Shown piece by piece: positions 52,493 through 55,822 of a stretch of 64,000 nt of DNA. The DNA comes from Candidatus Aminicenantes bacterium (lineage in GTDB: Bacteria; Acidobacteriota; Aminicenantia; Aminicenantales; JAFGBC01). Positions within the stretch are counted from its first letter, which is position 1; every line of letters starts with the position of its first letter. The notes under the pieces were generated by a model, which had not been told where the DNA came from, did no database searches, and was given only the letters and a program-made list of their open reading frames with translations. The position numbers and the translations under genes are program-made. Location: assembly GCA_963702005.1 (NCBI GenBank), contig OY969696.1, positions 2,016,001 to 2,080,000 on the forward strand, in the 5' to 3' direction.

Positions 52493-54233
52493 ATGATTAG
52501 AAAAACGCTCTCCGTATGGATGTTTTTAGCCGGCGCCCTCACGGCTGCTATCATAACCGTCGGGCCGGTCCTGGCGACTTCGTCTCAGCAGGCGGCCGGC
52601 TCCGAGCAAGCCGCTCCCGAAGGCGTCCCCGCGCGGGGCGAGATCATCGCCAAGAGCGCGATCAAGTCGGTCACTATCTTTCCCGAGCGGGCCACCGTCC
52701 TGAGGGAAGCCGAGCTCAAGCTTGACCCCGCCGTCAAGGCCGTCGTCTTCGAGGGACTGCCGGCGACCCTCATTCCCAGCTCGCTCCGCGTCACTGGAAA
52801 GGGGACTGCCGCCGTCAAGCTATTGGGCCTGGAGGTTGCCTCGATGTACCTCGAGTCGGCGCTCCTCCCCGAGATCAAGAAGGTCCAGGCCGAGATCGAC
52901 GCCGCGGAACTGGAATTAGCGAAGACGACGAACGCCCTCGAGGTCATCGACACGCAGGAGAAGTTTTTGAAGTCGATCGAGGCCTCGAGCTCGTCCAAAG
53001 CCTCCCAGGACATCGGGGCAGGCCGGGTCGATCCGGCCGCCTGGGAGCGAGTCGTCGATTTCCTCGGAGCGAAGCTCCTGGCCGTGAAGCAGGCGCGCCT
53101 GGGCGAGACCGTCAAGCAAAAGGAGCAAAAGGCCAAGCTCGATGCCCTCAAGAAAAAACTGGCGTCGATGATGCCCCAGCGGCCCCAGGAAGGCCGGAAG
53201 GTCACGGTCTTCGTCGAGACGGCCCAGACCGGGGCGTTCACGATGGCGCTGTCGTACACGGTGATCGAGGCCCGCTGGCAGCCGCTTTATACGCTACGGG
53301 CTTTGCCCGATTCCGGGGAGGCCGAGCTGGCCACGACAGCGCTCATCAGCCAGCGCAGCGGCGAGAACTGGACCGGGGTCAAGACCCTCCTTTCGACCTC
53401 GTCGCCGGTGCTCGAAGCCCAGCCCTCGGACCTCGAACCCTGGTATCTCGACATCTACGTTCCGCGGCGGGCCAAGTTTGAAGCCAAGCCCCAAGAAGTC
53501 GTGGGCGGCGTCGTGGGAGGAGTCGTGGGCGGCATCGAGAGCGCTAAAGAAATGCCGGTACCCCCGTCCGTGCCGCTCAGGGAAGCCGAGCTTCCCTCGG
53601 CCGCAGTCCTCGAATCGGGACTTCACCTCAACTTCGAGATCGCGCGGCCCGTCGACATCCCGAGCGACGGGACCCCGCACAAGGTCCCGATCGACGTCCA
53701 GCGGCTTAAGGCTGCCTACGACTACATCGCGATCCCCAAGCTGCAAGAAGCGGCCTATCTGCGGGGAAGCGTCAAGAACACGCTGGCCTACCCGGTCCTT
53801 CCCGGCCAGGCCGACCTGTTCATCCTCCAGGACTTCGTCGGGTCGACGAACCTCGGCCCGGTCGCGATGGGGGAGGAGGCCAAGACTTTCTTCGGCGAGG
53901 ACGGGCAGATCAAGGTCAAGTACGACGAGGTCAAGCGGGAGAAGAGCGGCCCGGGCTTCCTGGGCAAGACCGAGAAGCTCAGGATCGTCGCCCGGATCAC
54001 GGTCCAGAACCTTCGCAAAGAGGCGGCCGCGGTCGAGGTCCATGATCAGCTTCCGGTCAGCCGGAACGACAAGATCGAAGTCAAGGATGTAGCGCTAGCG
54101 CCCGCCCCCGCTAAGTAAGGATGAGAAGGGAATTCTGGTCTGGACGCTTAGCCTGGCGCCTCAGGAAAAGAAGGAAATCCTGATCGATTTCACGGTCGAA
54201 TATCCGAAGGACGCGCTCGTGACCGGCTTCTAA
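52493..54233 (+). pseudogene. DUF4140/DUF4139 (MuiA-like) protein, frameshifted near the C-terminus
   Basis: SVTIFPERATV, QRSGENW, IPSDG, DQLPVS. Premature TAA at 54116-54118; a family-type tail KDEKGILVWTLSLAPQEKKEILIDFTVEYP continues in the shifted frame to TAA 54233. Confidence 0.8.
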
Positions 54234-54244
54234 AGCGCTGAAGC

Positions 54245-54738
54245 TAAAGGGGTTGTCGCCCGCCGGCAACCCCGGCCGGCGGGGAGGGGGCCCAGTCCGG
54301 GTCGGCGCCGAAACCCCGAGCGCGCCTTTCCACCGTCAGCCGATCAAGTAAGGGGGTGATCCCCCGGGCGGGTGGGCAATTAACCCCCTCCGAGAGTCGA
54401 GGGGAGGAAAAATCATCACGAAAATCATCCAAGGCGGTGATTGCCAGACGCCTCCGCCCGCCTTATTATGACAACCGAAGTGGGCAACATGACGAACGCA
54501 GCCGAATGTGATCGTCAGGGAGTAGGAGGCAACCTCTCCGCCGGGTGGGTCGGCGCGGAGTCGGCTCGGTCCGTGAAGGGCCTTTGGACGGGCAGAGCCT
54601 CCGCCGCGCCGCCCCTCTCGTGGTTCCGCTTCTCAACTTTGAGCCAGATACCCAATCTTTACTAACCCTCCTTCCAAGGCCCCCTCAAGAAGGGAGCGGT
54701 CCCCGGGCTGGAAAGCAGACCGGGGACCGCATTTTTTT
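54245..54738 (+). ncRNA. Candidate large structured non-coding RNA, class not recognised
   Basis: No credible ORF; at least ten stems found by eye, several using G-U pairs, with GNRA-like loop sequences on the + strand; ends in a terminator. Confidence 0.55.
54696..54738 (+). terminator. Intrinsic terminator
   Basis: GCGGTCCCCGG...CCGGGGACCGC 11-bp stem followed by ATTTTTTT. Confidence 0.75.
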
Positions 54739-54746
54739 CCCGGGAC

Positions 54747-54881
54747 ATAATTCTGGGGACACACGACTTAATTCATCCCTAAAATCTTCCCTATCGCCGC
54801 CGAATTAAGTCGTGTGTCCCCAGAATTATTTACTTGAGTTAGGGCTGAATTAAGTCGTGTGTCCCCAGAATTATTTACTTG
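54747..54881. repeat. GGGGACAC-type REP-like cluster related to family A
   Basis: Arm ATAATTCTGGGGACACACGACTTAATTC at 54747-54774; its reverse complement occurs twice within 35-bp direct repeats at 54802-54836 and 54847-54881. Confidence 0.8.
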
Positions 54882-55822
54882 GCGCCTTTGAAGGAGATGC
54901 TGACCTTATTGCGGCCCTGCCACTTGCTGTGAAGCATGAGCTGTTCAGCCCGGGTGACCAGGCTCTCGATTGTGTCTTCCCTGCGAGCCAAGGTCGCGCC
55001 CATCGAAACGGTGCAGGAGATGAACTCCGTCTCGACCGAGATATGGGACTGGCTGATGAGGAGCCGCAACTTGTTGGCGACCATGTCGAGCTTGGCTTCG
55101 GTGATGTTGAGGACGGAGACCAAAAACTCCTCCTTGTCCCAGCGTCCGGCGGCGTCGAAAAAGCGGACATTGCTGGCCAGGGTCTTGGCGATCATCCGCA
55201 GGACGCGGTCGCCGACCTCGCGGCCGTGGCGATCGTTGATAGCGGTCAGGTGGTCGACGTCGATGAAGAGGACGCCGAAGGGGAGTTTGTAGCGCTGCAT
55301 CTCGGTCAGGCGGGAATGGAGATGGACCTCGAGGAACTGACGGTTGGCGACTCCCGTCCCGCGATCGAGGAGGGACATCCGCTCGAGCTCATGGAGATTC
55401 TGGGGCATCAGGATGCGCGGCGAATAGTCGACGAAGACCTGGCCGCAGCCGGCCGGCTTGCCCGCCGCGTCGACGACGGGAAAGGCGCTGATCTGGACGG
55501 GGAGCCGGTAGCCTTCTTTATGGAGGATGTAGACCGTTTCCCGGAAGACCGCTCCCGACTGGATGGCCCGGTCGGCCGGACAGAATTCCCTGCACTGGAC
55601 GACGCCCCTATCGTCGACGTGGACCAGGACCTTGTCCGAGCAATGTTTGCCCATGACCTCGGAGGCCGGGTAGCCCGAGATGATCTCGGCGCCCTTGTTC
55701 CAGAAGACGATCCTTTTATCCCTGTCCAGGAAATAGACGCCGTTGTCCAAACTGTTGAACAGGATTTCGCAGAAGTCCGGATTGAAGCCGTTTAGGAGCT
55801 CGCTGAAAAGATGCTCGCTCAA
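54875..55822 (-). CDS. PAS + degenerate GGDEF-domain protein
   Basis: PAS WNKGAEIISGY; DRGTGVANR, IDVDHL, INDRHG..VGD; active-site position reads RWDKEEF. Confidence 0.85.
   Translation of the reverse strand: MSEHLFSELLNGFNPDFCEILFNSLDNGVYFLDRDKRIVFWNKGAEIISGYPASEVMGKHCSDKVLVHVDDRGVVQCREFCPADRAIQSGAVFRETVYILHKEGYRLPVQISAFPVVDAAGKPAGCGQVFVDYSPRILMPQNLHELERMSLLDRGTGVANRQFLEVHLHSRLTEMQRYKLPFGVLFIDVDHLTAINDRHGREVGDRVLRMIAKTLASNVRFFDAAGRWDKEEFLVSVLNITEAKLDMVANKLRLLISQSHISVETEFISCTVSMGATLARREDTIESLVTRAEQLMLHSKWQGRNKVSISFKGAK

Follow-up and report, generated by a model that had tools for sequence, protein, structure and literature searches.

A promoter with a three-heptad element and a predicted short terminated RNA in an apparently large structured region of a Candidatus Aminicenantes genome

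In the window analysed here, a 64,000-nt stretch of a Candidatus Aminicenantes genome (assembly GCA_963702005.1, contig OY969696.1, positions 2,016,001 to 2,080,000 of the forward strand), the region at positions 54245-54738 is filled with potential RNA stems and closes with a terminator. A preliminary description, made from the sequence alone, took it for a single ornate non-coding RNA (ncRNA) of ~490 nt. Is this region really one RNA? In its middle lies a sigma-70-type promoter that is kept in 7/7 related copies. On balance, we favour a composite reading, in which the region consists of the 3' flank of the upstream DUF4139 gene, a promoter region and a terminated ncRNA of ~260 nt, and is not one RNA. 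The locus is probably a promoter of a wider class, marked by three 7-bp words (heptads), that drives a short and probably non-coding RNA.

The promoter and the transcript predicted from it

The promoter occupies 54441-54469 of the + strand and consists of a -35 box, TTGCCA (54441-54446), a 17-bp spacer and a -10 box, TATTAT (54464-54469). This is a 10/12 match to the sigma-70 consensus (the promoter scan gave 2 sites versus 0.4 ± 0.6 in shuffles). Among the seven copies, three in this genome and four in syntenic orthologs, TTG..A and TAT..T are invariant, and the spacer varies in sequence while its length is always 17 bp; a related strain has TTGTCA as its -35 box. The three heptads are located just upstream (54411-54442, + strand; alignment A3, model R1), with AATCATC at 54411-54417, AATCATC at 54423-54429 and GGTGATT at 54436-54442, an arrangement of AATCATC-N5-AATCATC-N6-GGTGATT in which the final two T's open the -35 box. 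They are unchanged in 4/4 copies except for one base in locus L003. The predicted transcription start lies at ~54475-54477.

Transcription would thus start near 54475 and stop at an intrinsic terminator (54696-54738, + strand), yielding a predicted ncRNA of ~260 nt (~54475-54738), or ~150 nt in the orthologs, with fold z-scores of -3.22 in the window and -3.14 in an ortholog. The first ~70 nt of this predicted RNA are conserved (54474-54541, + strand; alignments and folds) and comprise the hairpin TGACGA/TCGTCA (54490-54517) and the hairpin GGGAGUAGG-AGGCAA-CCUCUCC (54518-54539), the best-conserved part being CGUCAGGGAGUAGGAGGCAACCUCUCCGCC. There follow a branched GC-rich arm with a TGGTTC/GAGCCA hairpin (54542-54657, + strand; inverted repeat I3) and, at 54666-54679 of the same strand, the segment CCCTCCTTCCAAGG, which over CCTCCTTTCAAG agrees, but for a single mismatch, with the end of the 16S rRNA of this genome (3' tail, ..CACCTCCTTTCAAG..). 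The related-strain contigs show C>T at 54674, and in both the orthologs and the related strain the segment reads CCUCCUUUCAAG, a 12-mer that agrees with this 16S tail at every base. That the region is closed by its own terminator was correctly noted in the preliminary description: the terminator is present in the sequence, is formed on the + strand only, and persists in the orthologs, where one of its pairs has changed on both sides, from U:A to C:G. Its arms (54696-54710 and 54716-54730; inverted repeat I6) are 93% complementary. An 11-bp GC stem joins 54696-54706 to 54720-54730 and holds a shorter stem of 3 bp with a 5-nt loop, and seven T's follow at 54732-54738. A simple terminator scan found none, this one included, because, by our reading, the 11-bp outer stem encloses 13 bases, which exceeds the 8-base loop limit of the scan.

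Just before the terminator, the predicted RNA would carry CCCUCCUUCCAAGG, a near-copy of the 16S rRNA 3' tail, that is, of the anti-Shine-Dalgarno sequence. Its likeliest mode of action, by analogy with C-rich small RNAs, would be to pair with mRNAs at their Shine-Dalgarno regions, although we hold this mechanism, taken on its own, to be more doubtful than not. RsaE/RoxS and the UCCC-motif RNAs of Staphylococcus are C-rich small RNAs that pair with Shine-Dalgarno regions. The predicted RNA resembles them in its CCUCC-type motifs, CCUCUCC and the 16S-tail copy, and differs from them in having no sequence or structural homology and no Rfam match, and in that its motif is not a short C-run but reproduces the rRNA tail over 12 nt. 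The genetic arrangement recalls DapZ and MicL, small RNAs that are intergenic or embedded in a 3' untranslated region (UTR) and possess their own promoter and a Rho-independent terminator. As in those cases, a predicted promoter lies downstream of a gene on the same strand that lacks a strong terminator, and a short non-coding transcript with a + strand terminator is expected. However, the promoter here is in an intergenic spacer and not inside a coding sequence, the transcript is known as a prediction from sequence, and the same promoter-leader also drives two protein-coding genes. A role as a CsrA sponge, considered for the GGA-rich leader, was rejected, as no match to CsrA (PF02599) was found in this genome, which is 94% complete and in which the controls were found.

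The shared promoter-leader belongs to a ~255-bp core (54321-54576), made up of the promoter and the first ~100 transcribed bases. The 4.31-Mb genome contains three copies of this core, which are 85% identical. The other two copies, G000:C1:3159721-3159975 (+) and 3165846-3166055 (-), lie upstream of, and are oriented toward, a gene for an NHL-repeat protein and one for a BNR-type protein, both with signal-peptide-like N-termini. There the core would serve as promoter and leader of two secreted-protein genes, the counterpart of 54474-54541 being the leader, and the downstream context of the third core, that of the window, is the terminator. The named parallel for such a reused promoter-leader is promoter reuse, or putative mobile promoters (Mob Genet Elements 2012, PMC3575422). 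The likeness lies in upstream regions of ~210-255 bp that are 85% similar within one genome and precede sequences unrelated to each other, and the differences are that only three core copies exist here and that no terminal repeats or target duplications were seen.

The arrangement of DUF4139 gene, core, terminator and convergent PAS-GGDEF gene recurs, at ~79% identity, in another genome of the same genus (G001) and on four metagenome contigs. The sister genome has the syntenic core copy only, and this copy therefore looks older than the other two. The branched arm (~54543-54657, ~115 nt) is absent, as an alignment gap, from L005, L087, L099 and L122; a related-strain contig spans it without gaps, and the paralogs share part of it, up to ~54585.

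Several observations weigh against the composite reading in its functional form. Both the start near 54475 and the product of ~260 nt are predicted, and the binder of the heptads is a putative factor only. The helices of the transcript show one-sided (wobble-type) changes, with some breaking changes in TGACGA/TCGTCA, and the covariation test found a single two-sided change, in the terminator, among 5 distinct sequences. Of the RNA, 115 nt are missing from the orthologs, and the paralogs look like plain leaders that lack a terminator, the leader in L002 folding no better than shuffles (z -1.23). An alternative is that the window copy is a relic of a duplicated promoter-leader cassette, in which the promoter still fires and yields a short, terminated but functionless transcript, the copies before the secreted-protein genes being the working ones. 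Consistent with a relic, the three copies precede unrelated sequences, the helices within the transcript showed no covariation, the orthologs do without 115 nt of it, and the models of the order-wide small RNA described below do not recognise the window copy. However, the promoter, the conserved 5' part, the 16S-tail copy and the terminator are all kept in the syntenic loci of sister lineages at ~79% identity; the terminator stem of the orthologs carries a compensated change; the best-conserved 30 nt differ at only 4 positions among the 5 distinct sequences; and the sister genome has the syntenic copy only, so that the window-type copy looks older. We therefore regard a relic as rather unlikely and retain the composite reading with a working RNA.

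The three-heptad element across genomes

The window element (54411-54469) shows the pattern of a wider class, AATCAYC-N5/6-AATCAYC-N6-GGTGATT abutting the -35 box and followed by a -10 box 21-22 nt downstream. Exact scans for AATCATC-N-AATCATC-N-GGTGATT returned 74 stretches from a set of contigs with one genome per species and another 54 from metagenome contigs. By reading of the flanks, ~12 of the 74 and ~40 of the 54 belong to related groups in intergenic DNA, and the remainder are coding or chance matches, mostly with other spacing. The related intergenic patterns, which come from Bacteroidales, other metagenome-assembled genomes (MAGs) and metagenome contigs, are always oriented toward the downstream gene. 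In Aminicenantes MAGs this is mostly a receiver-domain gene, in Bacteroidales the gene for a 71-81-aa protein beside a LuxR-type regulator, and in other lineages a PAS sensor gene. A phylum-wide exact search matched 3/401 genomes, in a sample spread over a large phylum.

A covariance model of the heptads plus promoter, R1, was built from 35 instances (alignment A3). At E <= 0.01 it matched 97/101 genomes of the order, with 1-19 matches per genome and 11 in this genome, and nearly all of the matches listed were full length. The window scores 63.6 bits with R1, its sequence being itself among the 35 model-building instances. The R1 loci in this genome precede genes for a PAS/HD-GYP protein, a receiver/TonB_C protein, an MshEN/T2SSE ATPase and secreted proteins as well as coaD. 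Of the 28 best loci outside this genome, at least 16 lead into the receiver-domain gene, 2 into coaD and 5 into a small RNA. The heptad element probably marks a regulon of ~5-15 promoters per genome in the order, which in this genome would include genes for cyclic di-GMP (c-di-GMP) signalling, a pilus-type ATPase, receiver-domain proteins and secreted proteins. The titles and abstract openings returned by a literature search for the words AATCATC/GGTGATT contained no description of the motif.

Some of the genes behind these promoters are noteworthy in themselves. The best-conserved target order-wide, L140:38-1600 (G000:C1:2213034-2214599, -), encodes an N-terminal receiver domain with a C-terminal TonB_C domain, an unusual pairing. 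At G000:C1:3023853-3024434 (-), a heptad-type promoter precedes the gene for a ~120-aa protein that, by eye, resembles roadblock/LC7 (MglB-like) proteins. The 71-81-aa protein (..IKIKGHLDQKWEDWFDGM..) is encoded directly downstream of the heptads in four Bacteroidales-type loci (L012:434-646, L086, L095 and L107), in two of which, L012 and L086, the gene adjoins that of the LuxR-type regulator; it has no Pfam match, and tblastn against this genome found no homolog (best E 0.77).

The geometry of the class was examined with 25 non-redundant instances, filtered from 53. The best match to TATAAT was the hexamer starting 22 nt after GGTGATT (mean 2.92/6 versus 0.9-2.4 at other offsets); the A at its second and the T at its sixth position were found together in 48% of the instances at offset 22, 28% at offset 21 and at most 16% elsewhere; and a TG lay 2-3 nt upstream of the offset-22 hexamer in 36%. 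Five Bacteroidales-type instances have TTTG at +25 to +28 instead of a -10 box. The -7 box of Bacteroidetes is TAnnTTTG, and the position of TTTG fits it. As the promoter box appropriate to the phylum is found at one fixed distance, the element is argued to act on DNA, beside the -35 box. The central AATCATC/GGTGATT pair, which had been taken for a stem, is better described as an upstream promoter element held at a fixed distance from -10 boxes order-wide and in other phyla. Judging from these sequences, we read it as an operator or activator site for a putative factor, and we are reasonably confident that its action is on DNA.

Class II activator-dependent promoters and the Pho box offer the closest familiar arrangement, with an activator or operator site that abuts or overlaps the -35 box of a sigma-70 promoter. 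The heptads are similar in that repeated DNA words are fixed upstream of, or overlapping, the -35 box at several gene-oriented promoters per genome. They differ in consisting of three 7-bp words, two direct and one inverted, spaced by 12 and 13 bp, for which the binder is putative, and in that the words recur in different phyla, even before a Bacteroidetes-type -7 box. A mobile element inserted at TTGAC was also considered and rejected: the repeat in the speE promoter differs in sequence and has TTGAC on either flank, a duplication that the heptad element lacks.

The flanks of the heptads speak against a DNA element. In 57-69% of the 35 instances, the three-base flanks of heptads 1 and 3 could pair with each other; two-sided changes in these flanks amount to 21 cells versus 13.0 ± 2.8 in column shuffles, a number reached by 2/500 of them; the covariation score of the flanks was reached by 1/500 column shuffles; and G-U pairs in the flanks occur on the + strand only, which fits a hairpin. 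Such covariation could stem from pyrimidine-rich flanks combined with shared ancestry. Alternatively, the element may work as RNA, as a hairpin whose loop repeats the 5' arm and which therefore has two alternative pairings, serving as a cis-regulatory switch or a protein-binding site; transcripts would then begin further upstream, and the match to a promoter box downstream would be secondary. This would account for extension pairs that covary between lineages (CCC/GGG, CU/AG, UUC/GAG or GGG, GCGGG/CCCGU) and for one double change within Bacteroidales, for the confinement of G-U pairs to the + strand, and for a conserved U-G pair inside the stem in 30/35 instances. It would also suit some AT-rich loci with a good -10 box just upstream (e.g., TATAAT 5 nt before the element in L108) and the c-di-GMP signalling genes downstream, a kind often under riboswitch control. 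Against it stands the fixed distance to -10, extended-TG and Bacteroidetes-type TTTG boxes. In most lineages, moreover, the element marks the exact point where conservation sets in; heptad 3 never varies, and the changes in heptads 1 and 2 are not compensated there; pyrimidine-rich flanks on both arms predict, by our own estimate, ~75% standard pairs against the 57-69% observed; and the first helix of the order-wide small RNA begins right after the predicted start sites. We consider an RNA-level element improbable and keep to the view that the heptads are read on DNA.

The region as a whole and its neighbours

Could the entire region nevertheless be one RNA? A ~490-nt ornate ncRNA spanning 54245-54738 would be made alone or cut from the 3' UTR of the DUF4139 mRNA, and AATCATC/GGTGATT and GGGCGG/CCGCCC would be real helices in it. 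All of the stems listed in the preliminary description were found where it placed them by sequence inspection and an inverted-repeat scan: GGGGTTGTCG/CGGCAACCCC (54249-54273) and the mutually exclusive CCCGCCGGC/GCCGGCGGG (54259-54283); GGGGG-TGAT-CCCCC (54352-54365); GGGCGG/CCGCCC, CCCCTC/GAGGGG and AATCATC/GGTGATT; TGACGA/TCGTCA (54490-54517) and GGAG..CAA..CTCC (54518-54539); CCTTC/GAAGG; and the branched arm, whose arms at 54542-54574 and 54588-54620 are 76% complementary. The region also folds better than shuffles on the + strand, with a minimum free energy of -233.5 kcal/mol versus -210.5 ± 7.4 (z -3.13; 0/100 shuffles as good), and the + strand is the meaningful one, the - strand having a z of -1.63 with 5/100 shuffles as good. 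In addition, no strong terminator separates the stop codon of the DUF4139 gene from 54696, which makes read-through plausible; 54321-54410 is conserved in paralogs and orthologs as well; and complementary extensions stand beside heptads 1 and 3 in many lineages. However, the conserved promoter sits in the middle of the region, the heptads keep a fixed distance from phylum-appropriate -10 or -7 boxes, and the core of the L002 paralog lies in a divergent promoter region. Nor are the stems conserved as a set: the syntenic orthologs retain the terminator stem but have neither the GGGCGG/CCGCCC and GGGGG/CCCCC pairings nor the branched arm. Finally, the 5' half by itself (54245-54473) has a z of only -2.02, compared with -3.22 for the 3' half (54474-54738). 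A single RNA of this size is thus quite improbable; part of the region, not the whole 490 nt, probably is an ncRNA. Since no strong terminator follows the DUF4139 gene, read-through from it is possible, and the 5' half would then be a 3' UTR instead of a discrete RNA.

No Rfam family accounts for the region. With Rfam 15 at the gathering score, the only matches in the window were 2 tRNAs, both outside the candidate, and 16 related loci gave one tRNA and nothing else. Up to E = 10, 13 weak matches to microRNA and other small-RNA models were obtained in 54100-54900, all far below gathering and mostly on the downstream repeat or the terminator hairpin. The exclusion of RNase P, tmRNA, SRP, cobalamin and group II domains in the preliminary description is borne out by the lack of a plausible match. 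Its tentative comparison with raiA-motif RNA is not, as the raiA covariance model had no match in the window at the gathering score, nor in 54100-54900 up to E = 10; the two are alike only as large intergenic candidate RNAs in a bacterium. The region was also called free of open reading frames (ORFs). Strictly, + strand ORFs of 51, 74 and 87 aa overlap it; they are not conserved in relatives, and the description of the region as non-coding stands. A small protein encoded after the promoter (ATG at 54489, MTNAAECDRQGVGGNLSA..., with 58 aa in the window but only 19 aa in the orthologs) would explain the in-frame ATG in 4/5 distinct copies (shifted by one codon in L002) and a few third-position changes (AAC/AAT, CAG/CAA, GGA/GGG, TGT/TGC). 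It is scarcely credible, given that L003 lacks a start codon, that the length (19 to 58 aa) is not conserved and that no clear Shine-Dalgarno sequence is present. Moreover, the copies differ mostly by non-synonymous changes of several bases, and in the best-conserved 30 nt the synonymous sites vary no more than the others.

The region belongs to an intergenic stretch (54234-54875) that has a DUF4140/DUF4139 gene (+ strand) on one side and, converging on it, a PAS-GGDEF gene (- strand) on the other. The former (52493-54233, + strand; ORF list; Pfam DUF4139 1e-45, DUF4140 2.3e-18) is broken in this assembly by one extra base near 54116 (..GCT AAG T AAG GAT..), its last 38 codons lying in the +1 frame, up to the TAA at 54231-54233. 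The base is missing from related-strain contigs in two runs, and the ortholog in L005 is intact; the extra base is either an assembly error or a strain-specific frameshift. The two mutually exclusive GC-rich hairpins (54249-54283, + strand; inverted repeat I9) come right after the stop of this gene, have no U-run, and are replaced by different GC-rich hairpins in the syntenic orthologs; we read 54234 to ~54320 as the GC-rich 3' flank of the DUF4139 mRNA. The next part, 54321-54410 (+ strand), is the upstream part of the triplicated core, with GGGGG-TGAT-CCCCC and a CCCCTC/GAGGGG hairpin followed by an A-run, and is read as upstream promoter region. Beyond the terminator, and outside the RNA, a cluster of three 28-nt palindromic, REP-like repeats (54747-54881, strand not assigned; repeats D1, I1 and I2) leads up to the PAS-GGDEF gene. 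This repeat (GAATTAAGTCGTGTGTCCCCAGAATTAT) has 89 copies (<=3 mismatches) in 53 clusters in the genome, the cluster in the window being the largest. It yields spurious matches to microRNA models only in Rfam, and sister lineages have a related palindromic repeat at the equivalent position. It looks like a dispersed element of the REP type.

An order-wide small-RNA family and its possible meaning

Downstream of heptad-type promoters in other genomes of the order lies a candidate small RNA of ~130 nt. It begins with a first helix, GCAGCCU/AGGUUGU, that encloses the invariant loop CUCAUCCAAGG. The hairpin GGGAGAGG/CCUCUCCC and the unpaired segment CCCUCCUUUCA come next, and most members close with a terminator; the RNA carries a copy of the 16S rRNA 3' tail. 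The first helix begins 8-12 nt after the predicted -10 box in these genomes and therefore provides an independent check of the predicted starts. The family loci are G000:C1:1782339-1782453 (-), L151, L157, L162, L167, L168 and L178-L185. The covariance model of the family, R2, had matches in 66/101 genomes of the order at E <= 0.001, with one match in this genome, at C1:1782339-1782453 (E 1.4e-4). An Rfam scan of six family loci gave no match, and a literature search on small RNAs of Aminicenantes found only unrelated papers.

Evidence for the structure is modest. The first helix is 93.5% paired with one pair changed on both sides, and its covariation score was reached by 13/500 shuffles (alignment A6). 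By eye, two compensated pairs are seen in member L168. These helix counts were taken from the re-cut alignment A6, RNAalifold having given a poor consensus on alignment A5, in which MAFFT had misaligned the 5' strands.

How does the window RNA relate to this family? It shares a 14-nt identity, AGGGAGTAGGAGGC (within 54474-54541), with this genome's copy of the small RNA. By eye, it also has the second hairpin, GGGAG..CCUCUCC (54518-54539), the CCCUCCUUUCA segment (54666-54679, one mismatch) and the terminator (54696-54738). Both are thus alike in the heptad-type promoter, in the GGGAG...CCUCUCC hairpin followed by GCC, in a CCCUCCUU(U/C)CAA segment and in the terminator. They differ in the first helix and its invariant loop CUCAUCCAAGG, which are absent from the predicted window transcript. 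The models argue against membership: R2 gives the window only 8.9 bits (E 1.1), over 54359-54480 and not over the predicted transcript, and a profile hidden Markov model (nhmmer) has no window hit at E <= 10, this genome's own copy being found at E 1.8e-5. The window RNA may work like the R2 family, whose models do not accept it as a member; it is at most a diverged paralog.

Two further resemblances can be recorded. The weak R2 alignment falls on the upstream half of the triplicated core (54359-54480), which hints that the core might derive from a rearranged small-RNA gene, the score not being significant. Furthermore, the 11-mer TCATCCAAGGC in the window's promoter element (54425-54435, its sole occurrence in the region) equals the invariant loop of the family (e.g., L184:1483-1585), and the family loop generally resembles the consensus of heptad 2 plus spacer; chance, shared ancestry or shared recognition may be responsible.

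A wider proposal can be built on these elements: the window RNA and the R2 family would be anti-Shine-Dalgarno decoys that mimic the 16S 3' tail and are produced from a cross-phylum class of heptad promoters, forming an undescribed global circuit that links motility and c-di-GMP genes with translation. In its boldest form, one factor would recognise both the DNA heptads (AATCAYC...AARGG) and the near-identical RNA loop, and the small RNA would titrate that factor, by analogy with 6S RNA, which titrates RNA polymerase. We offer this as a speculation that is unlikely to hold.

At this locus, what appeared to be a large ornate RNA gives way to the ordinary architecture of a promoter, a short RNA and a terminator. 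The heptad class and the small-RNA family are more useful than the original finding at the locus. The former points to a probable regulon in almost all of the genomes searched from an uncultured order, and its element recurs in Bacteroidales and other lineages. The small-RNA family, detected in about two-thirds of these genomes and without an Rfam match in the loci scanned, copies the 16S rRNA tail. Together they provide handles for studying gene regulation in a lineage that is known from metagenomes only, namely a DNA bait for pull-downs, a covariance model and predicted transcription starts.

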